Notes: generated from the letters alone by a model not told the origin. A stretch of 64,000 nucleotides of DNA from a virus (IMGVR_UViG_3300020050_009209); one strand, 5' to 3'. Shown: positions 448 to 50,464, numbered from the stretch's first letter. Program-made: numbers and translations.

Positions 448-1020
448 ATGAGTAATCTGGTTCGGGAGTTTCAGGATGCGTTGATTACCCGCAACGTGGT
501 TGCAGCGGTTACGGCTCGAATCGTTCAAGCCAACGCATTCGGAAAACCCCTCTACGGACATAAGGATGAGAACTCCGCTTACCTCGTGGAGGACTACCCC
601 TATGGGGCGAGGGCTCGATGCCGAATCCGGTACTGGCTTGAATTTAGCTCTTCTAAGGGAGCTAGGTTCGTGTCTCAAACGGAAGACCCGAAACGGCTTC
701 GTTGGAACGCACCTAAGAAGTCTACCTACATGCCATGGGGCGGAGCTATGTACCTTGACTCCAAGGAGCATGTTCAATGGACAGGGGTAGGTCAGTACAC
801 AAAGGACGAGGAGATGCTAGAGTTCGTCAAAGCATTTCCAGACTCTGATCTGAGCATCCTCAAGAAGGTGGTTCCGATCAAGATAAAGTACCTTATGCGT
901 CGAATCAGTGGAGACAGTGGTCTCTCCATGAATGGAGTGAAGGTCGAAATGTCCGAAGAGGATATTGGTGAGGCTCGAAAAGACCTTGAAATCTGGCAAG
1001 ATATTGCTAAGTACGTCTGA
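448..1020 (+). CDS. hypothetical protein, weak N-terminal VxxRxxxA tag
   Basis: ORF 433..1020; ATG 448 after GAAAGG; VVAAVTARIVQA near the N-terminus. Confidence 0.75.
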   Translation: MSNLVREFQDALITRNVVAAVTARIVQANAFGKPLYGHKDENSAYLVEDYPYGARARCRIRYWLEFSSSKGARFVSQTEDPKRLRWNAPKKSTYMPWGGAMYLDSKEHVQWTGVGQYTKDEEMLEFVKAFPDSDLSILKKVVPIKIKYLMRRISGDSGLSMNGVKVEMSEEDIGEARKDLEIWQDIAKYV

Positions 1021-1029
1021 GTACTCACA

Positions 1030-1641
1030 ATGAGTAGCGAACTTACAACTAAGGTGCTGACAAGGTTCTTGGAGGCCTCGAAAGACCCCTTGAGCTTCAA
1101 CAAGGTCGAGAAGCTCTACCAAACTGTCGTGCGTCTGACAAAGCAGATTCATGCAGCGAATGATGACAAGGTGGAGGCCCTTTACGGTAAGATCGAAAAG
1201 GCCGCTTCCGATGTCATTGACCTAGCAGTTGCTGCGCACAAGAGCGGTAAGTTAGACTCTGATGACGCTAGCGCTTTAGCTAAAAGCTTCAAAGAGGTCG
1301 AAAAGGCTATCGACAATGGGGAAGGCAACCCTAGTGCGTTTTCAGCCGCAGGGCTAAAGAAGGCAGTAGAACGGCTCTACGGGGATATGCATAGAGCCTC
1401 AGCTCGCACCAAGACGGCAAAGACCTCCATGGAGCCTCATGTGGTTCGGAGTGCCCTCGCCATGTTGGAGGAGATGAAGGAGGCTGAGGCCCGACTGCGA
1501 AAGGCAGTTCAGTTCTCCAGGGCTCTACGAATAGAGCCCTCCCTAGAGTGGATCGTCGACCAGTTGGAGGAAGCTCACCAGTCCTGTGAGGGCGTAGTGA
1601 AGACTACAGAGGACACTCTCGACTACTTGAACCGCCGCTAG
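1030..1641 (+). CDS. helical hypothetical protein with N-terminal KVLTRFLEA tag
   Basis: 203-aa ORF; N-terminal tag; internal RTKTA. Confidence 0.75.
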   Translation: MSSELTTKVLTRFLEASKDPLSFNKVEKLYQTVVRLTKQIHAANDDKVEALYGKIEKAASDVIDLAVAAHKSGKLDSDDASALAKSFKEVEKAIDNGEGNPSAFSAAGLKKAVERLYGDMHRASARTKTAKTSMEPHVVRSALAMLEEMKEAEARLRKAVQFSRALRIEPSLEWIVDQLEEAHQSCEGVVKTTEDTLDYLNRR

Positions 1642-2123
1642 TAGTCGTCCCATTCGCTACTACCATGCCCCCAACAGAGTGAGCACTCCATAGAGTCTGC
1701 GGGCTGAGGTTCATACCCTGAGCCTGAGCATCGAGTACAACGGCTGTTTCGATAGTACTTAATCTCCCTTATCGCACCATCCACGATGGCTTTTGAGGCA
1801 GACTCCTTATCGCCTACGACAAAAAATACCCCCTCTGGGCTTAGAGTGATGGTGATAAGATCGTCGTAGTTCGTGTCGGTGAGGCCATCTTTCTCCCAAC
1901 TACGGAACGCATCTTCGTCCTTGTAGACAAATAGCTCGGTAACGTCCCAAAGTTTACGTGGTATCGCAGACTGAATTGTGGTCAAGGCCCTAAGGTGGCC
2001 TTCATATGGAGCACAAGAGACTACACTTGCGTTGGGCCACTTCCTGACTATGTAGTTCAAAGCCTCTACTAGATCGTAGGGGTTCCTAGCTCCAAGAAGT
2101 TCTACGTCGAACCCACCAATCAT
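1638..2123 (-). CDS. hypothetical protein with C-terminal DnaJ-type CxxCxGxG zinc finger
   Basis: CTRCSGSG and CSLCWGHG. Confidence 0.7.
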   Translation of the reverse strand: MIGGFDVELLGARNPYDLVEALNYIVRKWPNASVVSCAPYEGHLRALTTIQSAIPRKLWDVTELFVYKDEDAFRSWEKDGLTDTNYDDLITITLSPEGVFFVVGDKESASKAIVDGAIREIKYYRNSRCTRCSGSGYEPQPADSMECSLCWGHGSSEWDDY

Positions 2124-2728
2124 GACGACAACCTCTTGGGGATGTAGCTCTTACGATGGGCTGGGGAAATCCCTAGTTCGCGTATAGCTTGTTCGTGTTT
2201 CGCAGTCCCATAGCCTACGTTCGTAGCAAAACCATATCCTGGGTACTTGGTATCCAACTCCAGCATGTGTTGGTCGTGTAGGTACTTACCGATGACACTT
2301 GCTGCCATGACTGCGTGGATTAGTCCGTCAGCCTTTGGGAGAGCGATGTGGAAGCTGGTTAGCATTTGGTTCTGCCCGTCAATGATCACAAGTGCTTGAG
2401 GATGGCTCCGTTGTAGCTCACTCACTACAGCTTGGTAGCAGCGTCGCAGAGCAACCGCTACTCCTACTTGGTCAATCTCCTCAGCTTGAGCCATTTCGAC
2501 TTTGAATGGCACCTTAAGGGTGTCTACAAGGTACGTGTAGAAGTGCTTGTGCTTCGACTTACTCAACTTCTTAGAGTCGTTGAGGCCTACCGGTGGAATC
2601 CAACTTGTGGGTACCGCTACTGCACACACAACAAGGGGCCCGGCATACGACCCAAAGCCGCACTCATCTGCCCCTAGTACCATGGTGTGGTCGCTTATCT
2701 GGCGTACAATCTCTGGGCTAAGAGTCAC
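2120..2728 (-). CDS. rnhB: ribonuclease HII
   Basis: GADECGFGSYAGPLVVCAV, LNDSKKLS, IDG, KAD..AASVIGK, GYGTAKH, HRKSY. Confidence 0.93.
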   Translation of the reverse strand: MTLSPEIVRQISDHTMVLGADECGFGSYAGPLVVCAVAVPTSWIPPVGLNDSKKLSKSKHKHFYTYLVDTLKVPFKVEMAQAEEIDQVGVAVALRRCYQAVVSELQRSHPQALVIIDGQNQMLTSFHIALPKADGLIHAVMAASVIGKYLHDQHMLELDTKYPGYGFATNVGYGTAKHEQAIRELGISPAHRKSYIPKRLSS

Positions 2729-2910
2729 TCAACGTCCCCTTTGAGCGTGTCTTCAATGAGAAGAAGCAGTTGCTCTGTAAAACTGTTATGGTTGTAGCCA
2801 GAGTTGGCTTCCCAGTCCCCCTCAAACTTGACTTCAAGCTCCCCCTCCCCATCAAGACGAACATCCTTGATAGAGCGGAGAATGTCCAGTACTTCCTTAG
2901 ATGTTTTCAC
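2725..2910 (-). CDS. hypothetical protein
   Basis: 4-nt overlaps with both neighbours. Confidence 0.6.
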   Translation of the reverse strand: MKTSKEVLDILRSIKDVRLDGEGELEVKFEGDWEANSGYNHNSFTEQLLLLIEDTLKGDVE

Positions 2911-3188
2911 GACTTACTTGCCCCACCTGGAATGATTCGCCCCAGAACAGCATCGGCCTGGATATCACTTTTACGTCGAGCCGCTTCCATGTCGTACAGG
3001 TATACAGGCAACTTGTAGTGGTTAGCCCACCACTGGCCTTTCTCGTCAGCCTCTTCTACGGTTTCTGCTCGTGCAAGAATGTGTCCAGGCATAACACAAT
3101 CCCCGAGAATGACAGCAAACCCTTCTCGGCGTTCCAGTTCTGGCATGGCCCATGACGGAACCACGATGATTTTAAGAGGGGTGTTCAA
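2907..3188 (-). CDS. hypothetical protein
   Basis: 4-nt overlaps in a minus-strand operon. Confidence 0.6.
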   Translation of the reverse strand: MNTPLKIIVVPSWAMPELERREGFAVILGDCVMPGHILARAETVEEADEKGQWWANHYKLPVYLYDMEAARRKSDIQADAVLGRIIPGGASKS

Positions 3189-3610
3189 GCCTTCTTCCCT
3201 CCATGAAGAGCTGGGCGTGTAGCGTTGTATTGGAACTTGACGGCAACTGCCTTCGCTACATTTACACCATGAGCCTCAGCCTTATCAAGGGCACGAATGA
3301 TCTCATCTGCAATCTCTTCCTCAGCGTTGTTAAGACTTGGAAGCCCAAGAGCTTCCATCTTCTCAGACTTATCGCAGGGGGTGTAGAGCTTCCCTGCTCG
3401 AAACGCCTCCCAGAACTCAGAAGACTCTCCATGTTGATTCGCAGTGTAGACCGCAGCACGAAGAGTTTGCCCAACAGGTCCAGCCCACTGAGCATTGGTT
3501 AGGTCCCCTCGTAGTTGGTCTCGGAATCCCTTGGTTTTTGCGTTCTCAGCCACAAGATCACGAAGGGCGTTGAGGACAGCAAGACTCTCTGGGGTGACGA
3601 TTAGGTTCAT
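3185..3610 (-). CDS. MazG-like all-alpha NTP pyrophosphohydrolase
   Basis: HGESSEFWEAFR, EEEIADEIIRALD, KFQYNATRP..HGGK. Confidence 0.85.
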   Translation of the reverse strand: MNLIVTPESLAVLNALRDLVAENAKTKGFRDQLRGDLTNAQWAGPVGQTLRAAVYTANQHGESSEFWEAFRAGKLYTPCDKSEKMEALGLPSLNNAEEEIADEIIRALDKAEAHGVNVAKAVAVKFQYNATRPALHGGKKA

Positions 3611-3615
3611 GTCGA

Positions 3616-3665
3616 GGTACTACACCAAAAAAAGTGACCCATCTCCTTGTTTTTGGTGTAGTACC
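3616..3665. promoter_or_regulatory. divergent pair of TTTGGTGTAGTACC motifs (perfect 16-bp inverted repeat)
   Basis: GGTACTACACCAAAAA 3616-3631 and TTTTTGGTGTAGTACC 3650-3665; each GGTGTA lies 10-12 nt before a divergent ATG. Confidence 0.7.
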
Positions 3666-3672
3666 GTAGAAC

Positions 3673-4509
3673 ATGCTGCGAAGCGGAAAAACATCAGGGT
3701 TCCCCTACTCTTTGTCAAGATGGACCGATCTCCCGAGTGGGAAGTGGGCCTGGTTCCTCGCAAACCTGACCAGAGGTTACATGCTAGCCTTTGACCCTAC
3801 ATCAGGGATCCCAGCTCGTTGGTCGCTACGACCAGAAGACACCCTTGGGCTTTTGTTCTGGACCAAGGACCCGAGCAATCTCATTCTGGATGCCAAGCTA
3901 CTCCAATCTTACAAGGTCAAGGTACACATGACTCTGACGGGCTGGGAAGAGGTCGAGAAGGGGGCTCCAAGCCTTCTTGAGGGTGTTGCCCTCCTTGCCC
4001 AAGCCGTCGAGACCTTCGGCCCAGAGAATGTAACCTGGAGGTTCTCTCCGGTACCCCTGGTATCGGATGTAGTTGCTAGGTTCCAACGCATCCTTGACAC
4101 CGCAGCTAAGGTAGGGCTAAGACAAGTCTACGTGTCTTTCCTTCAGGCGAATGACTTGGTACCCGAAACTCGAAGCAAACAGGAGCGCCTTGAGTTGCTG
4201 ATTCAACTAGCTGACCTGGCTCAAACTAGAGGGGTGAAGGTCCTTCTGTGCAATGAGGACAATCTTCTCTTGCAAACTCAGGAGACTTACAGTAACCTGG
4301 CTTCCGGAGTGTGTGTCCCTCCGGCTGAGTTCGAGCTTACCGGATCTCAACCACTTCCTTCCGAGGGTTGTGGTTGTGTTTTGACGGTAGACCCGTTTAC
4401 AGTCAATGAGTCCTGCAACCTAGGTTGTGCCTACTGTTACGCCGCAGACAAGTCTCTGACCCCAAAAAAGCGTAACACGACAAAGAAGAGTTTACAGGTG
4501 CTACAGTGA
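3673..4509 (+). CDS. DUF1848-family protein (radical-SAM/SPL-like, C-terminal Cys cluster)
   Basis: SRWTDLP, FWTKDP, WRFSP, CGC, CNLGCAYCYA. Confidence 0.85.
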   Translation: MLRSGKTSGFPYSLSRWTDLPSGKWAWFLANLTRGYMLAFDPTSGIPARWSLRPEDTLGLLFWTKDPSNLILDAKLLQSYKVKVHMTLTGWEEVEKGAPSLLEGVALLAQAVETFGPENVTWRFSPVPLVSDVVARFQRILDTAAKVGLRQVYVSFLQANDLVPETRSKQERLELLIQLADLAQTRGVKVLLCNEDNLLLQTQETYSNLASGVCVPPAEFELTGSQPLPSEGCGCVLTVDPFTVNESCNLGCAYCYAADKSLTPKKRNTTKKSLQVLQ

Positions 4510-4790
4510 TTACCCCCTTTCTCACTCCAGAAGACCTTGGGATCAAACTCGACGAGGATTCTGAGGATGTGAGTGACCTAGACTTTGAGCAGGCGGTATT
4601 CACTGAATCCATTGAGGAGTTCTCCAAGCTCCTATCCTTGCTCATCGAGCAAAGCAATGAGGATCCTTTCATTGTAGAGCGCTACTTCCCAAAGTACGCG
4701 CTAAGACGCAAATGCGGTGTACTTCTTTGTCGGGTGGCCGTTGGCTCCCGCACTCAACTATTTCGGATTGACTGGCTGCAAAACACCTAA
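4506..4790 (+). CDS. hypothetical protein
   Basis: GTGA overlap with the upstream stop. Confidence 0.6.
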   Translation: MITPFLTPEDLGIKLDEDSEDVSDLDFEQAVFTESIEEFSKLLSLLIEQSNEDPFIVERYFPKYALRRKCGVLLCRVAVGSRTQLFRIDWLQNT

Positions 4791-4803
4791 GGGGAAAATA
4801 CGA

Positions 4804-5160
4804 ATGCGAAACCTTCTTTTCACTCTCACCGTACTACTGATGACCACCCTTACAGTTGGGGCTGGAGCCGACCCAAGAGGAGGTCGAAAGACCTTCAGTG
4901 ACACTATTGGTCGGGGTATGCAACAAACGTATGATCTAGTCCTAAACGGGGATGAGACTACCATTGTCGAGATCAATGGTAATGGTCGTAGTGACCTGGA
5001 TTGCTTCATTTTTGATGAGAACGACAACCTAGTCGTTAAAGACGATGACTCGTCCGACCAGTGCCGACTTGCCGTAACTCCCCGCTGGACTGGGCACTTC
5101 ACCTTGATTATCAAGAATGTAGGTACTACCCATAGCACTTACAGAGGAGTTGCCTACTAA
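4804..5160 (+). CDS. secreted protein with PPC-like beta-sandwich
   Basis: Signal peptide MRNLLFTLTVLLMTTLTVGAGA; DLDCFIFDENDNLVVKDDD. Confidence 0.65.
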   Translation: MRNLLFTLTVLLMTTLTVGAGADPRGGRKTFSDTIGRGMQQTYDLVLNGDETTIVEINGNGRSDLDCFIFDENDNLVVKDDDSSDQCRLAVTPRWTGHFTLIIKNVGTTHSTYRGVAY

Positions 5161-5495
5161 TGAGTAATCCAAACGATTGTGATCCTTGCCAGACAGGTGA
5201 GGGGCCTCCACCCACGCTATGCGATGGGAACACCACGAATAACTGCTGGGTAGAGAATGGAATCTGCCTACTCGACTCTATGAGCAAAGAGCAGATTGTC
5301 TACACAATCGAGCACAACCCTTTGGCAAGAACCGACCTTGTCAAAGTGACGACATGTGAGGACATCCTAGAGCTACTTAAGGACATCCCCATTCTTCCAG
5401 CCGTCCAAGAAGACGACGCACAGCAGAAAGCGTTCAACAGCGCTGACTGTCTCCCCTTCTACACGATTTTTCGTGGGAACTTTAACGACAGATGA
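5160..5495 (+). CDS. Cys-containing hypothetical protein
   Basis: TAATG coupling to the upstream gene. Confidence 0.6.
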   Translation: MSNPNDCDPCQTGEGPPPTLCDGNTTNNCWVENGICLLDSMSKEQIVYTIEHNPLARTDLVKVTTCEDILELLKDIPILPAVQEDDAQQKAFNSADCLPFYTIFRGNFNDR

Positions 5496-5848
5496 GTAGC
5501 GCTAGAAATCAGCGGAGGTTGATCGGGAAGGGGCTTAACGCCAAGTCCAACTCCTCAAAGGGAAACCCGCTGGGTGGGTTAGAGGCTCTAAAGACTCAAC
5601 TAGAGCATCTTCTGTCCAATGTAACGCCCTCCTCTGCACAGGCTGCTCAGATTGAGGACTCCATCAAGCTCATCTCTACTTTTGCGGAAGACCTTGCGTC
5701 CCTCAAGAAGGAACACGTCAAGCAGCGAGCTGTGACTTTGGGGTTGTTCTCCAAGTTGAGTTCTCTGTCGTTTGAAGATAGCTTGAAGCTGGAGACTGAG
5801 CTAAGGAGTGATTACGATCATAGTCACTCAGAAGAGGATCATGAATGA
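5492..5848 (+). CDS. hypothetical protein
   Basis: ATGA overlap. Confidence 0.6.
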   Translation: MSSARNQRRLIGKGLNAKSNSSKGNPLGGLEALKTQLEHLLSNVTPSSAQAAQIEDSIKLISTFAEDLASLKKEHVKQRAVTLGLFSKLSSLSFEDSLKLETELRSDYDHSHSEEDHE

Positions 5849-6395
5849 CAACTCGAATAGACCTCCCAACTCAGAAACGATTGGGACCACAGGGCCCTCA
5901 AGATTGGTCCCAGTTGATGTCCACCGTGATTCAACGGGCTCAGGCCCTACAGGATCCGAGACTACAAGGGCTTCAGGAGGCAATGACCCTTGGGAAGGCC
6001 GAGCAAGCCCTTCGCCGAATGGGAATTCTAACCGAGGTAGACCTACTTCGGGAATTCCCGGACAACGACCTGTAGACCCCGCTCAGACGTTGTTGCAAGC
6101 ATTTGAGCAGGGCGACCCTGAGGTGGTGTATCAAGCTGCCTTGGATCTGAAAGTTGCCTACAAAGAAGCGATGCTGGAGGGGGCTAAGCTAAGGTTCAAG
6201 TTGAACTTCGGGACCCCGTTTTGCGAAGAGTGCGACGGGTTACGCGCAGGTCCTGGGGTAATTGCCACCTGCTTTCAAATTAAACGTTGTGATTACACGA
6301 GTTTGAAGGACGGGAATCAGGATCCCGACCAGGTTCGGCTAATTACCAGCTTGGTAACCAACTTACAGAAGTATGAAGGAAAACATGACAAGTAA
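5841..6395 (+). CDS. hypothetical protein, disordered N-terminus, CxxC
   Basis: ORF 5808..6395; GAGG before ATG 5841. Confidence 0.6.
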   Translation: MNDNSNRPPNSETIGTTGPSRLVPVDVHRDSTGSGPTGSETTRASGGNDPWEGRASPSPNGNSNRGRPTSGIPGQRPVDPAQTLLQAFEQGDPEVVYQAALDLKVAYKEAMLEGAKLRFKLNFGTPFCEECDGLRAGPGVIATCFQIKRCDYTSLKDGNQDPDQVRLITSLVTNLQKYEGKHDK

Positions 6396-14074: not shown

Positions 14075-14913
14075 AGCCCGATAGCCTAAAACCTTGGGCT
14101 ATCTATAAGCTCACAGACCCACGTGAGCCTGATGTTGTTAGGTACATTGGCAAAACGCACCTCGCTGACCCCAGACGTCGCCTTCGAAAACACCTGACTG
14201 AGGCTGTGTCCGGACGGGATAAAACTTACTGCGGTAACTGGAAAAGGTCACTACTGGACGCTGGGGTCGAACCCTGTCTAACCATCATTGAATTAGGGGA
14301 AGGAGAAGGATGGGCGGATGCTGAGATGTATTGGATCACACACTATCAAAATGACGCTCGCTCACGTCTGACTAACTTGACGAAAGGGGGCGTAGGCATA
14401 GTTGGGTATCAGCATAGCCCTGAGACGAGAGAAAAGATTGCAGGCGCTCTTCTTGGTCACGTGGTATCCGTGACCACACGAGAAAAACTTCGTCATGCTA
14501 ACACCGGTCGTATTGCACCCAGAGATCAAGTGGAAAGATCATCGGCTGCCCGTCGAGGCAAAAAACGGTCTGCATCTGCGATTGAGAAAACAGCCGCTGC
14601 GAAGAGGGGTACAAAACACACCCCCGAAGCTATTGAGAAAATGAGAGCTTCCAAGCTTGGTCAAAAGCATACTGAGGAGGCAAAAGCCAAAATTAGTGCA
14701 GCTAATAAGGGGAAAATCCTATCCCCTGAATCCAGAGCCAAGATAGCCGCTGCCGCAATAGGGCGTATACTGTCGGACGAGACCAAAGCCAAGATGAATG
14801 CCGCCAAAAGGGGCCGAAAACAAACCACAGAAACTATTGCTAAACGAGTGGCCACTCGAAAAATCAATCGTGAGTCAAGAAAAGAGCGCAAAGATGAGCA
14901 CTACGTCGCATAA
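14071..14913 (+). CDS. GIY-YIG homing endonuclease with NUMOD3 repeats
   Basis: AIYKLTDP..RYIGKT, AEMYWI, NLTKGG; repeated HSPETREKI/HTEEAKAKIS. Confidence 0.88.
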   Translation: MKPDSLKPWAIYKLTDPREPDVVRYIGKTHLADPRRRLRKHLTEAVSGRDKTYCGNWKRSLLDAGVEPCLTIIELGEGEGWADAEMYWITHYQNDARSRLTNLTKGGVGIVGYQHSPETREKIAGALLGHVVSVTTREKLRHANTGRIAPRDQVERSSAARRGKKRSASAIEKTAAAKRGTKHTPEAIEKMRASKLGQKHTEEAKAKISAANKGKILSPESRAKIAAAAIGRILSDETKAKMNAAKRGRKQTTETIAKRVATRKINRESRKERKDEHYVA

Positions 14914-17176
14914 GATCAGTCCAAATCTGTACCTCGTTCGCCAGGAGATCACAAGGAAGCCAACTGTTCAACGGGTAGAACAACCAACCAATTATATATT
15001 CGTGTGTGACGTGTCCGGCTCTATGTCCAGCGATCTACCGATGATCCGAGAGCAACTTAAGAAGAAACTCCCCAAACTCCTCCGGGAGATGGATACAATT
15101 TCGATCATATTCTTCTCTGGACGCAAGGAGTTTGGAGTTATTCTGGAGGCCGAGCCTGTTGCCACCCTTGCCGATCTAAAAGACGTAAATACAGCAATTG
15201 ACCGCTGGCTTAAGCCAGTTGGTCTCACTGGGTTCAAAGACCCTTTGGAAGAGGTTATAGCACTGACCAAGAGGGTCTCCAAGATCAACAAAAGTACGTT
15301 CGCTCTCTTGTTCTTATCTGACGGCCATGATAATTGCTCTCCTCGTGGAGATGTGCTCAATGCCGTTGAGCAAGCTGGCAAATGCGTTGCATCAGTAACC
15401 ATTATTGAGTACGGCTACTACGCAGATCGACCCCTGCTTACCGCCATGGCGGAGAAGGCAGGCGGTAGCCTCATTCACGCAAACGCCTTCGACAAGTTCC
15501 AGCCTATCTTTGAAGCCTCGATGGCAAAGCGCCCTCTTGGAGCCTCCAAGGTTGAGGTGTCCATCTCTGGGGATGCGATTGGAGGATTTGTCTGGTCCCA
15601 AGAGAGTGGAGACCTGACAACTTACTCGATCGATGGCGATAAGGTACGTGTTACTGAGGGCACTGGAGATCTTTGGTACTTGTCCCCTAAGCCCAATGGA
15701 CTTGAGCACAAGCTTGAGAACTCCTTTGCTCCACTCTATGCGGCAATGAGTTTGTTCTCGGTTCGGATGAAGCCAGAGGTCATCTTTCCGCTCCTCAAGG
15801 CAACGGGGGACGTAAAGTTCATCGAAGACTTTGCCTCCTGCTTTGGTAAGCAGAAGTACAGTGAGTTCATGGATGCTACGAAGGCTGCGGCTTTCAATCC
15901 TAAGTTGTGCTTTAGCAAGGGCTATGACCCCAATAAGGTCCCAGCCGACGATGCTTACACAATCCTCGACTTGCTGAAGCTACTCTCATCCGATGAAGCT
16001 AACCGCGTTCTGTTGGATCACCCAGACTTCAAGTTTAGCTGCATCTCTCGTAAGCGAGTGGACGCAGCGAGTGTTCTGACCGAGGATGAGCAGAAGCAGG
16101 TAGCTGAGATCAGCAGCAAGCTAGCTACCGAAAAGAGCGCAGCCAAGCTGAAGGAGCTTCAAGCCGAGTTGTCTGCAATCACGGCCAAGAAGAATCCTTT
16201 GAAGTTCACGCAGACCTTGCAGCCAGAGGGGTACGCTATCTCCTCTCTCACCTTCAATGAGGACCGTCCCAACGTCAGCATGAAGCTGAAGCTTGAGGGG
16301 ACGGTAGACTTGACAGGTAGGCTCCCAGAGGGAAGTAAGATTCCAGATCAATTCTCTACCTTCCAGTACCGGGATCGTAACGTGGTAGCCGATGGTCTCG
16401 TCAACATGGAGCAACTTCCTGTCCGTGTAACGAAGGCCACGGCAAACGCCCTATCCAAGGTCCTACCCGCTGCGGCTCTTCCTGCGAAGATGATCGTAAG
16501 CAAGGACTACGTAGAGGGGACGATCAACCTCACGGCTCTTCCTGTCATCAACCGTCAAATGTGCAAGACGGCTTCAGCTGCAACCCTGTTCCGCACCCAG
16601 TTCCAGCTGGAGAAGGCTCGGGCAGCTCAAAAGGTGTACAAGGCCTACAAGGATGAGCGGGTTGCGAAGAAGGAGTCCAAGTCTTACCAAGAGACGTATG
16701 GAGCTACCGACGCAGAGTGGCTTAAGGACCAAGGGTTTACGGACTACAGCGGGTTCTCGCCAAAGATGGTCCAGGCAGAGAGCACTGACTTCTACGTAGG
16801 TAAGGCTCTTGAGGTGTCCCTTAAGGGGTACTCCAAGCTTCCCTCGATGACGGAGTACAAGAAGCAAGCCTCTACGAACAAGTTCAATGGGCCTGGACTG
16901 CTCATGAAGCCAGTCGTTGAAGAGGTTGAGGCCTACTTGAACTCGAAGCCTTCAGAGGCTGAAGTCCTTGCTTGGCTTGAGACCAAGACGAAGGCCTCTG
17001 TCAAGGCGGCTCGGGACCTCATCTTTGAGCTTGCTCAAGTGAAGTTTGCAATCGTAGTTGGCCAAGGTTGGTTTGAGGAGTTCTCTTCTCTTGACGAGAA
17101 CTCCCTAACTCTGGAAGTCGATGGGGTCCAGCTAGCTGGCAAAGTCGAGATGAAAGAGATCCAAGTAAAGCTATGA
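14894..17176 (+). CDS. vWA-domain protein with large uncharacterised C-terminus
   Basis: MIDAS DVSGS, T, LSDG; ATG 14894. Confidence 0.85.
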   Translation: MSTTSHKISPNLYLVRQEITRKPTVQRVEQPTNYIFVCDVSGSMSSDLPMIREQLKKKLPKLLREMDTISIIFFSGRKEFGVILEAEPVATLADLKDVNTAIDRWLKPVGLTGFKDPLEEVIALTKRVSKINKSTFALLFLSDGHDNCSPRGDVLNAVEQAGKCVASVTIIEYGYYADRPLLTAMAEKAGGSLIHANAFDKFQPIFEASMAKRPLGASKVEVSISGDAIGGFVWSQESGDLTTYSIDGDKVRVTEGTGDLWYLSPKPNGLEHKLENSFAPLYAAMSLFSVRMKPEVIFPLLKATGDVKFIEDFASCFGKQKYSEFMDATKAAAFNPKLCFSKGYDPNKVPADDAYTILDLLKLLSSDEANRVLLDHPDFKFSCISRKRVDAASVLTEDEQKQVAEISSKLATEKSAAKLKELQAELSAITAKKNPLKFTQTLQPEGYAISSLTFNEDRPNVSMKLKLEGTVDLTGRLPEGSKIPDQFSTFQYRDRNVVADGLVNMEQLPVRVTKATANALSKVLPAAALPAKMIVSKDYVEGTINLTALPVINRQMCKTASAATLFRTQFQLEKARAAQKVYKAYKDERVAKKESKSYQETYGATDAEWLKDQGFTDYSGFSPKMVQAESTDFYVGKALEVSLKGYSKLPSMTEYKKQASTNKFNGPGLLMKPVVEEVEAYLNSKPSEAEVLAWLETKTKASVKAARDLIFELAQVKFAIVVGQGWFEEFSSLDENSLTLEVDGVQLAGKVEMKEIQVKL

Positions 17177-26555: not shown

Positions 26556-27294
26556 GCGCCTCGAACTTCTCCGGGCACTTTCTCTTCAGCTCCTGTGGCT
26601 CTTCAATGTAGGCCCGGAAACTCTCTGCCACATCCTCTACGCCGGGCTTATGCTCGGCGTAGTCTGAGATGAATGGAGGGTTACCCCATGGAGGGCCGTC
26701 AACCCGGTGTGTCTCCTCGAAGGCATGACCCAACTCATGAGTAAGTTGGGTCGTCCTAACCTTAGCGTCATAGCTTTTGTGAATCGAGAGATGCATCACT
26801 CCACCAGACCGCCAAGAGGCGTCCTCGGAACCCATAGGACCGCCAAGGTGAACCTTCTTGACAGACTGGGACCAAACCTGACGAGCCTTGGGCTTGAGCT
26901 TCTTGAACCCCGCAACCCACCCCAAGACAGCCTTCCCAGCCTCGGGGTCATTCTCGAATTTCATGTCTGGGACAACGCTGATCCCCATTTCTCGACCCAT
27001 AGCTAGGAAGGCGTCAACGAAGTCAACAGATTTCGTAGTTTTCGGAGCCTTAACCTTTGTACGCTCTACCAGGCTAACCTCATCTTCGTCTACGCCACGC
27101 GAACGAAGATATTCCCCTAGCTCTGTGACAGGGAACGGAGCAATGGCGTCATTCCGTAGAGACCGGACGAGCTGTTGAATGCGAGTCGTTGCATCCGGGG
27201 CTGCGTTGGCATCAAGTACTTTGAGGATAGCCTCCAGATGCTCCGGAGTAACGTTCTGAGATGCCGCAAATCTCGTAGCGACCCGCAGCGCCAT
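26539..27294 (-). CDS. zincin metallopeptidase with N-terminal RVATRFAA tag
   Basis: THELGH, ISDYA, EDVAESF; ATG 27294. Confidence 0.75.
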   Translation of the reverse strand: MALRVATRFAASQNVTPEHLEAILKVLDANAAPDATTRIQQLVRSLRNDAIAPFPVTELGEYLRSRGVDEDEVSLVERTKVKAPKTTKSVDFVDAFLAMGREMGISVVPDMKFENDPEAGKAVLGWVAGFKKLKPKARQVWSQSVKKVHLGGPMGSEDASWRSGGVMHLSIHKSYDAKVRTTQLTHELGHAFEETHRVDGPPWGNPPFISDYAEHKPGVEDVAESFRAYIEEPQELKRKCPEKFEALKKLV

Positions 27295-30475: not shown

Positions 30476-31002
30476 GCGGTAAGTACCCCTGTCTCTGTGA
30501 TGTAGTCTTTGGTACTTAGAGCGGATAGTACACTAGAGTTCATTGTAAGTCCTGTCCCCTTTTGGGTGGCGTAGCGATTTACAGTGTGCTCCTTGTGTCC
30601 ATCTCGATAGGTGCGAGAGGGTAACCTTCGGACAGCGATTGTGTGGACCTGCGACCCTGAACCAGACTCGCCAAAATACGGGAGAAGCGTCATAGTGAGT
30701 GTACCACTTTTCTGTAGCAAGTACTGGTCTATCTCACTTATGGGAGTTACGGGGTTCAAGTTGTTTTCTAGGGGTATGTCGTTCTGAATGAAGTCGCCTA
30801 AGAGGTACAACCCTAGGTCAAAGGTTGGAGCAAGTACCACAACACTTGCTCCAAGACTGAACTTCAAGACATTGTGTGCCGCTCGAACGTCAAGCACTAG
30901 GTTGTTGGCCAAGACTACCCCACTGAGGTCAGGAAGAATTCGGTCGAATCTAGACCGCGTATCTTCCACATCTAGGTCCAACGTCCAGGTGTAACGATTC
31001 AT
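30472..31002 (-). CDS. hypothetical protein with N-proximal SRFDRI tag
   Basis: TRSRFDRILPD. Confidence 0.65.
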   Translation of the reverse strand: MNRYTWTLDLDVEDTRSRFDRILPDLSGVVLANNLVLDVRAAHNVLKFSLGASVVVLAPTFDLGLYLLGDFIQNDIPLENNLNPVTPISEIDQYLLQKSGTLTMTLLPYFGESGSGSQVHTIAVRRLPSRTYRDGHKEHTVNRYATQKGTGLTMNSSVLSALSTKDYITETGVLTA

Positions 31003-31013
31003 ATTCTTCTTAT
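31002..31013 (+). promoter_or_regulatory. TAAYNTNCTTAT-class putative late promoter
   Basis: TATTCTTCTTAT 14 nt before ATG 31028. Confidence 0.6.
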
Positions 31014-31027: not shown

Positions 31028-31998
31028 ATGCCAAGTATCTTGACTAGAGTAGTACACCGGTATGCCGCAGCCACCAAGGTGGTGGTAGACCTACAGGCTA
31101 CTCTTCAAGCTCGCAGCAAGTACTCGCTGTTTTCGGATCTAATCATCGGCAAGTTCGACAGCACAACGACCATGTATCGAGTATTTGACGAGGTAGAGCT
31201 TGGACACATTCTAGCTTCCGGAAGGATCACGGGATATTTGACGAGGTAGAGCTTGGACACATTCTAGCTTCCGGAAGGATCACGGGAGGGAACTACTCTG
31301 TAAAGGCTGAGCGAGACCATGGGGCAAGTTGGGGGTCGAACATCAACGAAGTCATTCCTTGGGGGTTACGACAACTAGGGGGGCGTCTTGGACAAGAACT
31401 ATACCTAGCCAAGTTGGATGCCTTTGACGTGAGTTTTATGCACCTAGACCCCGGAGTGGCGATTGACCCCAATGGAGCCCCAGAGCAGACCATTGTGTTT
31501 GATACGAGTAGGTGTAATACAGGCCTAGGGTGCTCCCTCATCAACGTCAAGTTAGAGGACGTTGACATATTCAAGGTGAACTCACAAGGTCAGATCCAGC
31601 GGCAAAGCATCGCGGAGCTTAAGGCCGGTTTGAAGACCAAAGAAGAAGCGCCTAAGGAAGCCCCCACAGAAGACGTACCTGTAATCAACGACAAACTGAG
31701 GGACCCTACCTGGGAGCTGCAACCGAAAGCAAAAGTCATTGTCACGAAAGGATCCACACCGCTAGGAATTGGGGTGCGAGCTACAGCTCAGGTTGTAGAT
31801 GTATGGCAGCGTGTTGTGGGGGGTAAGCCTGAAAAGGAAGTCATGGTAAGGCTGCAATTCGTGTACCCCAGGAAGACCCCTGACAAGTGGACGCGAGAGC
31901 CAATTACCCTATACGCGACACATGCGAACAGACTGAAAGACCATGAGATAGCGCTTCTAGACAGCCGAGGTAGCCGGGTACTGATTAAGAAGCGCTAG
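31028..31998 (+). pseudogene. RVVHRYAAA-tagged gene frameshifted by a 53-bp tandem duplication
   Basis: Removing one copy of the 31182-31287 repeat gives 918 nt (305 aa) joining ORFs 31028..31249 and 31414..31998. Confidence 0.8.
31182..31287 (+). repeat. perfect 53-bp tandem duplication
   Basis: TATTTGACGAGGTAGAGCTTGGACACATTCTAGCTTCCGGAAGGATCACGGGA x2. Confidence 0.95.
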
Positions 31999-44162: not shown

Positions 44163-44168
44163 AACGTG

Positions 44169-44196
44169 TTAAGGTTCGCGTTAAGGTGTACGTAAG
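44169..44196 (+). promoter_or_regulatory. TTAAGS-N16-CGTW putative promoter
   Basis: TTAAGG-16 nt-CGTAAG, 8 nt before ATG 44205. Confidence 0.6.
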
Positions 44197-44204
44197 GAGA
44201 GGGT

Positions 44205-44746: not shown

Positions 44747-45079
44747 CAGAAGGCAAAAGAACACGGTGGGCTCAAAGCGTTCTCAGCAACTTCGGAATAC
44801 AAGCAGGTGTATCCCGAGATCGAGGCTATCTACAAAAAAGAGACCCTAGCTGCAAGTACAAAAGCTCTACAAAAGGCCGGTCTTGAGTACGGGGAAGAGG
44901 TAACTTACTCGCAACTCAACCTGCTGTTGGGGGGCGTGATTACTGCCAAGGGGAAGCTTGTAGAACGGCGTGGGAAGCCATACGTGAAGCTAGACCCACC
45001 TGTGCTGGGTCGAAAAGAAGTTCGTTGGCACTCAGGCTTCGTTCGCGTCGCGTACAGTTACGACAGAGGCGGCACATGA
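44699..45079 (+). CDS. hypothetical protein
   Basis: Starts at the ATG of the third repeat copy. Confidence 0.7.
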   Translation: MKPTFLDYDQARAWMEQKAKEHGGLKAFSATSEYKQVYPEIEAIYKKETLAASTKALQKAGLEYGEEVTYSQLNLLLGGVITAKGKLVERRGKPYVKLDPPVLGRKEVRWHSGFVRVAYSYDRGGT

Positions 45080-45697
45080 CTCAAATTACAAGATTCAGGG
45101 ACATACCACCCTACACTAAGAGCCCAACCCTACACCGTGAATGTAGGGTTGGGTTACTTGGTGGCGCACTATACCATGTGTGTAACCGAGTGGGGTCTGG
45201 ACGTGGCCCCAGACTTCCAGAGGGCTTACGTTTGGACTGATCGTCAGAAAGTCAGTTTCGTGGAGTACTTCCTCCGAGGTGGTTCCTCTGGGGTAGACAT
45301 CTACACGAACTGCCCTACCTGGAATTCCATGGTACCTCCACTGGATCCCAAGTCATGGTTCGTCCTTGTCGATGGGAAGCAGCGACTTGACGCATTGCTA
45401 GGGTTCCTTAACAACGAATTCCAAGTGTTCGGAGGAAGCTACTTCCGAGATTTCACGGACAAGCCAAGGATTACGTCCGCTAACCTTAGGTGGCATGTAA
45501 ATGACCTGAAGACTCGTGAAGAGTGCCTTCAGTGGTATCTGGACTTGAATAGTGGAGGTACTGTCCACACTCAAGAAGACTTGGATGTCGTGAGAAACCT
45601 CCTAGCTAACCAGGTACCTTACGTAAGGCCTGAGTACAGCACTATACTAGAGCATGCTCGGCTGAATCGTGAGGCCTTTCGGGGTCAGGGAAAGTGA
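45076..45697 (+). CDS. DUF262/GmrS ParB-like protein, apparent 1-nt frameshift near 45128-45130
   Basis: PDFQRAYVW, VDGKQRL, LNSGGT; ATGA-coupled N-terminus MTQITRFRDIPPYTKSP is in a different frame. Confidence 0.75.
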
Positions 45698-46368
45698 TCA
45701 CAGGAGCTGACACCTTAATGAGGGAGGTCTTGAAGTTGGAGTACTTCCAACCCACCTCATCCGGAGTTACCCCTATTCCGACCTACTGGAAGCCTGGAAC
45801 AGGTAATACAGTAGTCGTAGTAGGGGAAAACGCGTCCGGTAAGAGCTTTCTACGTCGTGTGATTGCTTACCTCTGTCAGCAGTCCAACCTAGAGTGCATT
45901 CATACCAGCATGCAAGAGCGCGTTCAGTCCACCGGGCTGAAGCGTATCATGGTCTATGGGGAAGAGACTGAGAGTGCAACGGGCTACAACTCAGCAAACC
46001 TCATCCAAGGCAGCATGCGAACCTGTCAATCTCGGGAAACTCCTCACGTTATGGTGTGGGATGAGCCTGAGCTTGGACTGTCAGATAACAGTGTAACTGG
46101 AGTAGGGTTAGCACTGCGAGACTTCCTCAGTACCCCTCCAGCTCACACCTTAGCTCAAGTTATCATTACGCACTCTAGAGTCCTGGTACAGGAGCTTCTA
46201 GACCTTGACCCGCACTACCTTCACCTTGGCAGTGAAAGTCCCCCCAAGAGTCTCCTGGAGTGGATGAGAGCCCCTATTACCCCTCGTAGTATCTCTGACA
46301 TCCTGCTTGCAGGGAAAGGTCGTTACCGTCTCGTTGAAGATGTACTCAGGGCAAGGAGAGGGAAATGA
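45694..46368 (+). CDS. small ABC-type ATPase (AAA_21-like)
   Basis: GENASGKS, VWDEPELGL, ITHS. Confidence 0.8.
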   Translation: MITGADTLMREVLKLEYFQPTSSGVTPIPTYWKPGTGNTVVVVGENASGKSFLRRVIAYLCQQSNLECIHTSMQERVQSTGLKRIMVYGEETESATGYNSANLIQGSMRTCQSRETPHVMVWDEPELGLSDNSVTGVGLALRDFLSTPPAHTLAQVIITHSRVLVQELLDLDPHYLHLGSESPPKSLLEWMRAPITPRSISDILLAGKGRYRLVEDVLRARRGK

Positions 46369-46524
46369 CTGGCGATGAGATTTACAATGAAGTAGTCAGG
46401 GGTGGCTCCAATCAAAGAGAGCCCCCGAATCCTCCATTGAGGAGTTTGCCAATTCTGGTGGCTACTTTGATGCTTTTGGGGTATACGCTGGTCAACCCGA
46501 CTTGACCGAAACCAAGAGGCACAG

Positions 46525-47751
46525 ATGCTAAGTGAACTTGAGATTCAGCTAGTAACCAAGTATATCTTGAGCCTCGATGAGCGATCAGACCGCTATGGGG
46601 ATGAGTTGGTAGACCACGTACTCCATCGTATCTCCTATCTCAACTCTGACGATGAGGTTGATTGGGATACCTATCGGGCTATCTGCTCATTTAGAGATGA
46701 GTTTGGGGGTGAATTTGATGAGGCACAAATGGCCTTTGTTGAGAGAGTCCTCCAAGGAGATAGCCCACAAGTAAGTGCCAAACAACCCCAGGCTCCATGT
46801 CACATTCTGGCTGCGAGTCAATTTGACATCAAGACTATCGACCTCGTATTCAAAAGGGCTCAGGAGATAGAGCATTCGACCACTGAGAGACTTCTACACA
46901 AGCTACAGGGTAAGACCTTGGCTTGCGTTTTCTATGAGCCGTCTACCCGAACATCCTCCAGCTTCATTGCTGCAATGGGTAAGCTTGGTGGGAACGTGAT
47001 ACCCATCACACAAGGGGTCCAGTACTCAAGTGTATCCAAGGGGGAGTCGCTAGAAGATACGATCGTCACCTTGGGTCAATATGCAGATGCGATTGTTCTT
47101 CGTCATCCTACGGTAGGGGCTTCAGCTCTTGCGGCTAGCGTTAGTCCCGTGCCAATCATCAATGCAGGGGATGGTATTAGTGAGCACCCCACGCAAGCTC
47201 TTCTAGACCTATACACGATCCAAAGGGAACTCGGGCGTACATCCAACCTTAAGGTAGCCTTTGTGGGGGACCTTGCGAATGGGCGGACGATCCACAGCTT
47301 AGCTGCACTCCTAGCGCTCTACTCAGGAAATGAGTTCTCCCTAGTATCCCCATTCCTACTGAAGCTAAGTCATGATTCGGCGCCTTACCTGCGAATCAAA
47401 GACAAAGTAACCCATGAGATTCACGTAAAGGATAGCCTAGTAAAGGCTGAGGAGGTTTTGGCAGAGGCGGACGTGGTCTACATGACGCGAATCCAGCGAG
47501 AGCGTTTCGGGTTCCTAGAGAACTATTCTGAGGTAAAGGACTCCTGTATTCTCACGGAGGAGTTAGTAAAGAAGCTCAAGCCATCGGCACGTATTCTACA
47601 CCCCCTCCCGAGAGTCAACGAGATTCCAAGAGAGATCGACTCTGACCCTAGAGCGGCCTACTTTCGAGAGGTCAAAATGGGACTTTACGTGAGGATGGCC
47701 CTCCTAGACCTAACAATGGGGTCGACCGAACCTTGGCTACTCAACCTATAA
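46525..47751 (+). CDS. pyrB: aspartate carbamoyltransferase catalytic subunit with about 90-aa N-terminal extension
   Basis: FYEPSTRT, KGESLEDT, INAGDG, HPTQALLD, GRTIHSL, TRIQRERF, HPLPR. Confidence 0.95.
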   Translation: MLSELEIQLVTKYILSLDERSDRYGDELVDHVLHRISYLNSDDEVDWDTYRAICSFRDEFGGEFDEAQMAFVERVLQGDSPQVSAKQPQAPCHILAASQFDIKTIDLVFKRAQEIEHSTTERLLHKLQGKTLACVFYEPSTRTSSSFIAAMGKLGGNVIPITQGVQYSSVSKGESLEDTIVTLGQYADAIVLRHPTVGASALAASVSPVPIINAGDGISEHPTQALLDLYTIQRELGRTSNLKVAFVGDLANGRTIHSLAALLALYSGNEFSLVSPFLLKLSHDSAPYLRIKDKVTHEIHVKDSLVKAEEVLAEADVVYMTRIQRERFGFLENYSEVKDSCILTEELVKKLKPSARILHPLPRVNEIPREIDSDPRAAYFREVKMGLYVRMALLDLTMGSTEPWLLNL

Positions 47752-47760
47752 CATACTTAT
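47749..47760 (+). promoter_or_regulatory. TAAYNTNCTTAT-class putative late promoter
   Basis: TAACATACTTAT 13 nt before ATG 47774. Confidence 0.6.
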
Positions 47761-47773
47761 CCTGAGGTTAGGT

Positions 47774-48715
47774 ATGTCCTTCAACGCCAGAGAAGCGGTT
47801 CGTCTACTCCTTGCTATGTCTATGGAAGAGGCCAAGCAAGCACTAGGATTTGCTCCAAATGCGAATCCTAGCTCGGGAGAGATTCAACGAGCCTATCGCG
47901 CAAAGGCTATCCAAAATCACCCTGACCGTGGAGGTGACCCAAAGAAGATGGTCGTCATCAACGTGGCTAAGGAGATATTGGAGGGGAAGCGAGTCAACGA
48001 TAAGACCGAGTACACTCCGGACGTTGAGGATGCTGGAGTAAAGAAGCAGCGGCAACAAGAGGCGTTTGTTGCGGACGTGAAAGCGGAGAAGGCGAAGGTA
48101 GGGAGTGCATTTGAGTCATCAAAGGCGGCAATTCTATCGCCATTCGGTCGGCACACTATACCATTCCCTGAGTTCTTGGATACTGCCTTCGAGTCAATAG
48201 CCAAGATCCAAGACGAGATTCAGGATACACTAGATGACTCCCCTCAGAAGGACCCAGCTTGGGTGAAGACTCAGCAAATCTGCGATATCATCGTAGGTAA
48301 GATGCGGCGAGTAGATCAGCAACGCATCGCAGTAACTCTGCCCTTACCAAAAATTCTTACTTTCAAGGATATCGAGTCTCGGTTCAGGGCAATGAGGGTT
48401 CTCCTTAAGTCCTACGAGGCTTTGATGGGGGAGTCCTCTAGTCTCGTAGGCTTGCTCAATACTAGTGAGGACGTCCCACTGAATTGGGATAGTATCTACT
48501 ACCACACTCACGGTATGTTCTCGTCTTATCTGTCGAACCTTCGTGACACCTTGAAGCAATTACACTTGACTTCCCTCAAGAAGCAATTAGAGGATAGTAG
48601 AAGCGCTATCATTAAGAGCAAGACTGCCAATAAGATCGGCGGGTTTACTCCTATCGAACAATGGGACCAGCTAGAATTCCCTACAAGCTTCAATGACCTC
48701 ATGGAGGTCAAATGA
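47774..48715 (+). CDS. J-domain (DnaJ) protein
   Basis: EIQRAYRAKAIQNHPDRGGD...INVAKEIL. Confidence 0.85.
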   Translation: MSFNAREAVRLLLAMSMEEAKQALGFAPNANPSSGEIQRAYRAKAIQNHPDRGGDPKKMVVINVAKEILEGKRVNDKTEYTPDVEDAGVKKQRQQEAFVADVKAEKAKVGSAFESSKAAILSPFGRHTIPFPEFLDTAFESIAKIQDEIQDTLDDSPQKDPAWVKTQQICDIIVGKMRRVDQQRIAVTLPLPKILTFKDIESRFRAMRVLLKSYEALMGESSSLVGLLNTSEDVPLNWDSIYYHTHGMFSSYLSNLRDTLKQLHLTSLKKQLEDSRSAIIKSKTANKIGGFTPIEQWDQLEFPTSFNDLMEVK

Positions 48716-49773
48716 ATAACATAATAGCCAGGGTCGTCTACCGGTTCGCAGCAACCAAACAAGAAACCGCCTTCCTCGCCCTTCTGGAAAAGGTACGCCG
48801 GGGAGCGGACTCTTCCCTCAAGTTACCTCAACTACTCCAAATTCTAGACTATCTTGGTGGTTGGAGCTACAAGGCAGTTGACAATATCAAACAGCCTTGG
48901 GTTTCAAAGCCTAAAGTGGTGTCTACTGATACGCTAACAGAGGCAGAAGTTAGGGAGCGCTACCAAGTTCGACTAAGGCTAGAGAGTGGGCCAAAAGTCA
49001 TTGGTAAGGTGTACCCATTTGAGCTTACAGCCCCTAAAGACCTACCTGGAGGTAGTTTCGGATTTACCTACAAGGAGTACATGCTTTCCAACGGGATTTT
49101 GTTTCGATCCCCGGAAGGGAAGGAGTACGAAGCTATTAACGACACTCACGACCAAGTCGACCCATTCCAAGGAGTTATTTGGACCTCAAAGATGAAATCG
49201 TGGTTTCGTACGGAGACTAAGTTCCTTGACCAGATCTCTCAGGTACTTGGGGTGCCTAACTCTGACCGTCCTACATCCACAGGGCTAAGTAAGTCCAAAC
49301 CAAGAGAGCTTAGTGGTACTGGTACCTGCCCAGCTTGTTTCCGTAACATCAAGCTCAAGAAGGCTGGAGATGCCTACAAAATGGTTCTCCATGGTTATGA
49401 GCGGCCAGGGTGGGGGTACACTGAGGGTCGTTGCATTGGAGTGGACCACCCTCCCTTTGAGGAAAGCCCTAAGGGCACTAAAGAGGTGATTAAGGTACTT
49501 GCCCTTCGACTACGGGGGTTGCAGCAATATCTAGTCGACTTGCACTCTGGTAAAATTACCTCTATTCAAAATCGGGACAATGCCGTTGTCCGCAAGGGGG
49601 ACCCCTCCTGGACAAAAGACTACCTTCAGAAGATCTCCGATGTGGAGTACGACTACAAGCAGGTAGATGAGGATGGGAAGGCGTTTGAGAAATTGGTCCG
49701 GGATTGGGTGAAAGCGGATTTACCTAAAACGGGGGATAAAGTAGCACCTCCACCACGCTTCCTTACCTTATAG
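48712..49773 (+). CDS. hypothetical protein with RVVYRFAA tag and C/H zinc site
   Basis: N-terminal tag; GTCPACFR...HGY.RPG.G...C. Confidence 0.75.
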   Translation: MNNIIARVVYRFAATKQETAFLALLEKVRRGADSSLKLPQLLQILDYLGGWSYKAVDNIKQPWVSKPKVVSTDTLTEAEVRERYQVRLRLESGPKVIGKVYPFELTAPKDLPGGSFGFTYKEYMLSNGILFRSPEGKEYEAINDTHDQVDPFQGVIWTSKMKSWFRTETKFLDQISQVLGVPNSDRPTSTGLSKSKPRELSGTGTCPACFRNIKLKKAGDAYKMVLHGYERPGWGYTEGRCIGVDHPPFEESPKGTKEVIKVLALRLRGLQQYLVDLHSGKITSIQNRDNAVVRKGDPSWTKDYLQKISDVEYDYKQVDEDGKAFEKLVRDWVKADLPKTGDKVAPPPRFLTL

Positions 49774-49783
49774 GAGTTACAAA

Positions 49784-50464
49784 ATGTCGCTCTCAGTCAT
49801 CTCAAATGTCGTAGCTAGGTGGAAGAAAAAGGCTAACAACGAGTCCGTCTGGGCCGTAGGATCTGAGCGTAAGGACTACGTTGAGGTCGTTTGGGACATG
49901 TACAAGTCCTCCTACCAAAAAATCGGCATGCACGTTTCAAGCCCTGCGGGTCTCTTGGACTACGACAAGTGGGAAATTATGCTTGACGGAGACAAACCCG
50001 TAGCTTTCAACCTGTACAAGAGCACCTCGATGGGGTTAAAGGCTGGGTTGGCAGGTACGGATGGGTCTGCTGTAGGTAAAAGTTTGATGAAAGACCACTT
50101 CAAGGCTCGACTTCAGCGTCCTGGAGTGTACGCTGAAGTTAGCCATGCCGTAGAGCGTCTAAGTGCCGGAGCCCCTGTCGTTTGTGCTGTACACGTACCC
50201 AAGGTTCTCGGTAAAACTGTAATACCCCAAGAAGATGGGGTACACTACCAAAGGTCACTGGAAGGGTTAGGTCCCGTGGTGAAAAAGTTGATTGGGAACC
50301 CCAAAGGGGTTCCGTCTGGTTCGGAAAATGCGTGTGAGATCTATGCTAACCCAGGGGAACCACTATCCCCCGAAGAGGCTGTAAGGCTCGCAGCTGAGCA
50401 TAAAGTGAGTCAAGAGATTGACATGGCAGAGCATGCCTCTTGTCAACTTGACCTAGACGACTGA
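49784..50464 (+). CDS. hypothetical protein with NVVARWKKKA tag
   Basis: AGGAG SD; N-terminal tag. Confidence 0.75.
   Translation: MSLSVISNVVARWKKKANNESVWAVGSERKDYVEVVWDMYKSSYQKIGMHVSSPAGLLDYDKWEIMLDGDKPVAFNLYKSTSMGLKAGLAGTDGSAVGKSLMKDHFKARLQRPGVYAEVSHAVERLSAGAPVVCAVHVPKVLGKTVIPQEDGVHYQRSLEGLGPVVKKLIGNPKGVPSGSENACEIYANPGEPLSPEEAVRLAAEHKVSQEIDMAEHASCQLDLDD

Follow-up and report, generated by a model that had tools for sequence, protein, structure and literature searches.

Why should otherwise unrelated proteins of a single virus begin with the same short, basic segment? The question is raised by a DNA stretch of 64,000 nucleotides (hereafter the window) from the viral record IMGVR_UViG_3300020050_009209, between positions 448 and 50,464 of which an original prediction had recognized such a segment and read it as an address tag for loading proteins into the phage head. 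The window has a G+C content of 51% and carries short genes, tightly packed on both strands, for which 102 proteins were called. It stems from an uncultured phage of about 380 kb, the protein of gene 48712 having been placed on a contig of 381,772 bp, and it had no close DNA or protein relative among GenBank phages, where none or only distant ones were detected. As comparators we used five related IMG/VR records, each taken whole: G001 (286 kb), G002 (363 kb), G003 (435 kb, complete with terminal repeats), G004 (363 kb) and G005 (255 kb). The tag census presented here covers these five genomes of 255–435 kb and the 64-kb window out of the ~380 kb of this phage.

The strict pattern [RK]V..R[FYW].{1,3}A had exactly four matches in the six-frame translation of the window (127,996 residues), and all four were located at the starts of real genes, within residues 4–11:

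1042–1077, plus strand: tag on gene 1030–1641 (203 aa, function unknown), KVLTRFLEA, ELTTKVLTRFLE; first basic residue at residue 8; 20.3 bits.
27259–27294, minus strand: tag on gene 26539–27294/27315, RVATRFAA, MALRVATRFAAS; strict match; 29–30 bits.
31037–31072, plus strand: tag on gene 31028, RVVHRYAAA, ILTRVVHRYAAA; strict match; 28.0 bits.
48721–48756, plus strand: tag on gene 48712–49773 (353 aa, Cys/His zinc-binding family, fold unknown), RVVYRFAA, IIARVVYRFAAT; 24.6 bits.

When the 102 called proteins were shuffled 2,000 times, strict matches averaged 0.185 (0.0135 within the first 15 residues), with a maximum of three and never at least four, so that the claim of a shared N-terminal tag on unrelated proteins was borne out. 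A position matrix built on the window and the five relatives, with a cut-off of 16 bits, retrieved 66 matches in real proteins, none in reversed and none in shuffled ones. Fifty-two of these 66 tags were found within the first 40 residues, the first arginine being most often residue 7. The copies in the window use different synonymous codons (AAG, CGG, AGA or AGG for the first Arg/Lys; GTG, GTC or GTA for Val); therefore we are not dealing with a DNA repeat or a regulatory element beneath the tag, both of which these differences rule out, and selection acts on the protein. One of the profile matches is probably a false positive: in the 173-aa protein G003_207461, the C-terminus of an endonuclease VII-like zinc protein (DDPEVLRAAALYLEAR) scored as a tag, presumably as a motif of its own family. 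The tag is clade-wide, modular, strongly N-terminal and selected at the protein level, and it comes in a separate variant in each lineage. It is very probably a shared docking tag of some kind. We found no publication that mentions it.

The 66 matches gave the consensus M-D-[SP]-[LI]-A-x-R-V-[AV]-x-R-[FY]-[LA]-x-A. Hydrophobic residues were conserved at positions −3, −2, +1, +2, +5 and +6, arginines at 0 and +4, and Asp/Ser-Pro ahead of them, a spacing that fits a capped amphipathic helix of about three turns. In line with this, AlphaFold2 modelled the tag of the 48712 protein, with low confidence (pLDDT below 50 at residues 7–12), as part of an N-terminal helix that makes no packing contact with the fold. 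A linker rich in Pro, Gly and Ser usually follows within 6–12 residues and joins the tag to unrelated cargo domains. A Tat signal peptide was ruled out, since the two arginines are four residues apart and no hydrophobic stretch comes after them; Tat signals have adjacent twin arginines in S/T-R-R-x-F-L-K, then a hydrophobic stretch and an A-x-A site.

The modular character of the tag became apparent once it was masked. The tagged proteins then fell into 39 families without mutual similarity in BLAST, which corroborates the earlier description of unlike cargoes and rules out a shared ancestral N-terminal domain. Where a domain could be recognized, the cargo was a J-domain protein, a type IB topoisomerase, an HExxH peptidase-like protein or an HD plus poly(A)-polymerase-type nucleotidyltransferase; the majority matched nothing in Pfam or PHROG. 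In the family of gene 48712 the tag was retained in 26 of 28 homologues, down to an identity of about 30%, and in four homologues of this family it stood behind an extra N-terminal domain of 80–100 residues. Tandem tags occurred in G001_5815, G001_218879 and G001_136474, tags at both ends of one protein in G005_237491 and G002_7286, and a C-terminal tag in G002_219353. Within families the tag has been gained and lost, and after the splitting of one gene it is found again at the newly created N-terminus. Two further modules were observed among the tagged proteins. A Tudor/SH3-like domain (YFxPGD..GKYKN..G.V) always directly followed the tag (G002 7286, 119 aa; G004 71385; the N-termini of P0021, P0026 and P0030), and in G002_7286 a tag came after it as well. 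At G002 220680–223717 (L020:680-3717), a second peptide module, [ST]PEALKEYLH[ED]HPKADKSKHTVKK, was present in three copies in two neighbouring charged tagged proteins.

The tag also differed between lineages in a consistent manner. In G003, position +4 was not Arg in 8 of 12 tags (mostly Leu, as in RVARLFLAR), compared with 1 of 54 elsewhere (p = 7e-7). In G005, Leu replaced Ala/Val at position +2 in 6 of 13 tags, compared with 3 of 53 elsewhere (p = 0.001). Since these variants are common to non-homologous proteins of one genome, they imply a single co-evolving reader: judged from the sequences, one partner that drifts with the phage lineage would read all tags.

What might this reader be? 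We consider loading into the head the best reading of the tag and hold it tentatively. The tag would be a modular docking helix, joined by linkers to unrelated cargo domains and bound by one co-evolving partner, and its likeliest destination would be the assembling head, at the scaffold/core or at the inner capsid surface. Tagged enzymes, i.e. HExxH peptidase-like proteins, J-domain proteins, topoisomerase IB, HD-nucleotidyltransferase and many proteins of unknown function, would be co-packaged and delivered with the DNA. We infer both that the tag docks on one reader and that this reader belongs to the head.

The best argument in favor of head loading is the conservation of tagged genes in the head module. 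In G002, this module comprises in order a tagged protein of 129 aa, a protein of 209 aa, a probable large terminase with an intein, a tagged topoisomerase IB, the portal (phrog_16240), a 962-aa protein tagged at about residue 73, a protein of 594 aa, the head maturation protease (phrog_18299), a Gln-rich acidic scaffold-like protein and the capsid protein; it is syntenic in G001 and G003–G005. The 129-aa protein was tagged in all five genomes. The charged post-portal protein (962–1347 aa) had a tag or near-tag in all five as well, near residue 70–90 in G001, G002, G003 and G005 and at residue 1087 in G004, and the topoisomerase IB was tagged in all three full-length copies. The expectation that tagged genes would be found in head-gene operons thus held for three genes in the packaging/head module of the relatives; it did not hold for the window, whose tagged genes are not near head genes. 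There is precedent for such a mechanism: T4 loads IPI–III and Alt via an N-terminal peptide, and its tagged core proteins (gp67/gp68) are encoded between portal and protease, while encapsulins, which have the HK97 fold, load cargo via short terminal peptides. The capsid protein of the relatives is of the HK97 type (phrog_2522, PF05065), and by this protein the nearest cultured phages are Tunturiibacter phage Tunturi_5 (47% identity) and Bacillus phage G (37%). The capsid proteins of G001–G005 (e.g. L013:16778-17650) were 90–97% identical to each other, an unusually strong constraint given that most other head-module proteins share 30–80%. A search with PF03420 (Peptidase_S77) for a T4-type prohead protease gave zero matches in the five relatives, as it did in the control genomes; the head maturation protease that the relatives do encode (phrog_18299) belongs to another kind.

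Several observations weigh against head loading. The tagged genes of the window lie among replication and nucleotide-metabolism genes, away from head genes, and in the relatives tagged genes are concentrated around clpX as well. The protease, the scaffold-like protein and the capsid protein are without a tag; so is the portal in four of the five genomes, that of G004 scoring 14.4 bits, which is below the 16-bit cut. Within the scanned 41-kb head/tail region of Tunturi_5 there was no tag. The link of the tag to a TTAT motif found upstream of genes (see below) is weak. The original prediction had further suggested cleavage after the Ala, in favor of which we obtained nothing: no conserved cleavage motif is present after the tag, Glu at +7 occurring in only 8 of 66 copies, and internal, tandem and C-terminal copies do not need a free N-terminus, unlike a cleaved leader. 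That the N-terminus is preferred and not required argues against a simple leader of this kind.

Besides head loading, the concentration of tags around clpX has to be explained. The tag may be a docking or degron motif for ClpX, be it the phage's own, with its zinc-binding N-domain and an LGF loop for ClpP docking, or that of the host; tagged proteins would then serve as adaptors, or else be tethered to the N-domain as clients to be unfolded or degraded at a given time. The original prediction did not include this alternative. We regard it as a serious rival, although rather unlikely, and a number of points speak for it. A true ClpX is encoded by all five relatives (E = 1e-108 to E. coli ClpX; zf-C4_ClpX + AAA_2 + ClpB_D2-small), complete with the C4 zinc-binding N-domain, and its gene has tagged genes as immediate neighbours in G001 (between 5815, which has two tags, and 8518), G002 (between 214733 and 218102, in a 12-kb run where about 9 of 15 genes are tagged), G004 (adjoining 88026) and G005 (between 25105 and 26990). 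By synteny, genes 448 and 1030 at the start of the window form the tail end of this clpX island. This adjacency is, however, partly inherited synteny and not a set of independent events; G003 has no tagged gene adjacent to clpX, and at four further ClpX loci, from three or four phages (L108 and L109 gave identical matches), only 0–2 tags were located within 10 kb on either side. Among the relatives, ClpP was found only in G003. The gene clpX itself is split by an intein in G002, where inteins (Hint + LAGLIDADG) were observed in ClpX (L019:15735-18077) and in the probable large terminase (G002 79359–82718); the orthologues of these two in G001 and G003–G005 are devoid of them. On the peptide level, the ClpX-binding (XB) peptide of SspB, RGGRPALRVVK (PMC3983244), is resembled by some tags (MALRVATRF, PIALRVVARY, LILRVAARF). 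XB binds the ClpX zinc-binding domain at any position of the chain (PMC12373786), which is matched by the N-terminal, internal, C-terminal and tandem placement of the tags, and three classes of N-terminal degrons are also recognized by ClpX (PMC12723719). With respect to the XB core P-A-L-R-V-V-K, R-V-[AV] is near-invariant in the tags and Ala at −2 is present in 30 of 66, but Leu precedes the first Arg in only 15 of 66. The conserved i, i+4 pattern and the AlphaFold2 model suggest a helix, whereas the SspB peptide is reportedly bound as a beta strand (Park et al. 2007, PDB 2DS8). The conservation of the ClpX N-domain also counts against this reading, and docking on ClpX moreover gives no reason for the head-module location of those tagged genes that are most conserved. 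In particles of phage G, both ClpX and ClpP were detected by mass spectrometry (PMC12484599), so that ClpX and head loading may be compatible. A bolder combination of both, in which phage ClpX would grip some 10–20 phage proteins by its zinc-binding N-domain via an SspB-mimicking helix and either destroy them at set times or hand them over in unfolded form to the assembling head, seems unlikely to us. To our knowledge, no virus-owned client-selection code for an AAA+ unfoldase has been described.

The tag might also dock on another hub, such as a recruited host protein or another phage assembly or replication factory, or it might mediate tag-tag self-association, by which the proteins would be brought together in one body. 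In being position-flexible, tandem and linker-attached it acts like a generic short linear motif; its cargoes are mostly enzymes and protein-remodelling factors, and several tagged proteins are long, charged and of low complexity (G002_88081, 220680, 222101). Since no Hsp70 is encoded by the relatives, their tagged J-domain proteins have to rely on the host DnaK, and a phage Hsp70 is ruled out as reader. The Tudor/SH3-like YFxPGD...GKYKN domain was likewise discarded as reader, being present in only two of six genomes. As no other candidate hub was found, and as the lineage-specific variants are easier to reconcile with a rapidly evolving reader encoded by the phage than with a conserved hub of the host, we give this explanation a low chance. 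Extremely improbable is the absence of any sorting function, with chance, composition, a constraint on translation initiation, a DNA repeat or an ancestral N-terminal domain producing the pattern. It is true that the tag is short and rich in Ala, Arg and Val, and that the match in G003_207461 looks family-intrinsic. The 66 real matches as compared to none in shuffled or reversed proteins, the differing codons, the internal and C-terminal copies and the loss of all similarity upon masking nevertheless speak against it. A small share of the probability is given to none of these explanations.

The individual genes of the window and their surroundings deserve a closer description. The following features complement the four tags listed above:

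448–534, plus strand: decayed copy of a longer tag subtype, gene 448–1020, SNLVREFQDALITRNVVAAVTARIV; below zero on the core matrix, aromatic residue lost.
31002–31013, plus strand: TATTCTTCTTAT, one mismatch to TAAYNTNCTTAT, before gene 31028.
31028–31998, plus strand: true extent of the 31028 cargo gene (about 305 aa, not 73 aa), its frame broken by a duplication.
47749–47760, plus strand: TAACATACTTAT, identical to TAAYNTNCTTAT; gene 47774 starts 14 nt further on.
47774–48715, plus strand: J-domain protein without tag; Pfam DnaJ at residues 24–71; matrix score −3.5.
49796–49831, plus strand: weak tag on gene 49784–50464, NVVARW, VISNVVARWKKK; only 10.2 bits.

The relatives of gene 1030 illustrate how freely the tag is placed: it is N-terminal in G005_25105 and internal in G001_4880 (residue 64) and G002_222101 (residue 432), where it sits behind an N-terminal module. 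This module, MPAKVDELFK...AWATAWS..CKHV, was seen at G001 4880–5317 (minus strand) and G002 222101–223717, and it is putatively ChaB-like. The protein of gene 27294 (minus strand), the start of which is either ATG 27294 or TTG 27315, has a C-terminal part resembling HELGH zinc peptidases; its homologue G002_282818, 95 aa long and consisting of the HELGH part only, is without a tag. In gene 31028, a perfect 53-nt tandem duplication (31182–31234 and 31235–31287) shifts the frame behind the tag. The orthologue G004_73634 (369 aa), which carries MDALTTRVLTRF, joined the open reading frames 31028–31249 and 31414–31998 in tblastn, and the duplication reflects either an error in the assembly or a mutation that happened very recently. 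For the cargo of gene 48712, the AlphaFold2 model (mean pLDDT 75) had no fold match in the PDB.

Gene 48712 is inserted between two halves of an unrelated gene. In G002, a J-domain fusion protein of 611 aa (246221–248056, minus strand; L021:6221-8056) corresponds to the product of window gene 47774, the J half, plus that of 49784, the C-terminal half (residues 397–611), which bears no tag there. Since the fusion is split in the window, the tag-like N-terminus of 49784 arose at the new start. This copy, which the original prediction had counted as a full one, reached just 10.2 bits; it is weak and possibly young. The segment AREAVRLLLAM of 47774, proposed as a weaker tag, is not a tag: it is helix I of the J-domain and aligns with ERYARLLLSMSLQEAK of the relatives, among which J-domain proteins with true tags ahead of helix I do exist (two tags in G001_5815, one in G002_225709). 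The other supposed weaker copy, on gene 448, was upheld in part. It scored below zero on the core matrix but aligned with the longer subtype PL[RQ][AE]F[QHK]DAL[IL]xR[NR]V[VTA][AS]R[FV] (PLRAFQDALITRNVVAR[FV]), which in the relatives is N-terminal in G001_111665, internal in G002_220680 and C-terminal in G002_219353.

As for the TTAT motif, TAAYNTNCTTAT, the window contains four exact copies (13071, 13860, 40549 on the minus strand, and 47749) and one with a single mismatch (31002), each about 25 nt before a start codon and promoter-like; from base composition we estimate that about 0.2 exact copies would be expected. Gene 31028 and the 47774 operon were confirmed to lie directly behind this motif. 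The proposed association of motif and tag did not extend further: genes 1030 and 27294 are without TAAYNTNCTTAT, and three genes led by the motif are untagged (13099, 13886 and, on the minus strand, 40534). No CTTAT was present upstream of the tagged genes of G001 or G002, and a common promoter-like motif was not seen upstream of tagged genes in G001–G003.

Two more genes of the window may be mentioned for their own sake. At 46525–47751 the phage encodes an aspartate/ornithine carbamoyltransferase with both Pfam domains and an N-terminal extension of about 75–90 residues that is missing in the G002 orthologue. At 14798–17176, a von Willebrand A-domain protein of 792 aa matches phrog_2426, a family of unknown function, very strongly (E = 1e-165).

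What is new here are the internal, tandem and C-terminal tags, the lineage variants, the tagged genes of the head module and the presence of clpX among tagged genes. If head loading is true, the set of proteins injected by these uncultured phages of 250–435 kb could be read from sequence; it would include peptidase-like proteins, J-domain co-chaperones, topoisomerase IB and a tRNA nucleotidyltransferase-like enzyme, and the tag would suggest a peptide handle for putting foreign proteins into large capsids. If instead the tag is a handle for ClpX, it would constitute the first case of a virus encoding a client code for an unfoldase. On either reading, a 12-residue peptide found on about 40 families in lineage-specific form is a concrete bait for its partner.

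In comparison with known systems, the tag is reminiscent of the T4 capsid-targeting sequence in that one short N-terminal peptide is common to unrelated proteins of a single phage and in that some of the tagged proteins have their genes between those of the portal and the head protease. The consensus, however, bears no resemblance to the T4 peptide, MKTYQEFIAE, and, whereas the T4 prohead protease recognizes L/I-x-E, no protease site is conserved here; internal, tandem and C-terminal copies exist, the capsid protein is of the small HK97 type and not gp23-like, and the tagged set is far larger, with about 10–15 proteins per genome in 39 families. With the XB peptide of SspB the tag shares the A-L-R-V-V/A core in several copies and a position-independent tether; tandem copies would allow bivalent binding, and a ClpX with a zinc-binding N-domain is encoded among the tagged genes. 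The Leu before the Arg is, on the other hand, not conserved, the SspB peptide lacks the second Arg and the aromatic residue of the tag, the tag is predicted to be helical and not a strand, and no SspB-like substrate-binding body is present. The cargo peptides of encapsulins and bacterial microcompartments differ in consensus and are not set in a phage context, and a contact with the shell is only putative in our case. Yet they, too, consist of a short terminal peptide or amphipathic helix that is attached by a flexible linker to unrelated enzymes and may be placed at the N- or C-terminus, and encapsulin shells have the HK97 fold in common with the capsid protein of this phage.

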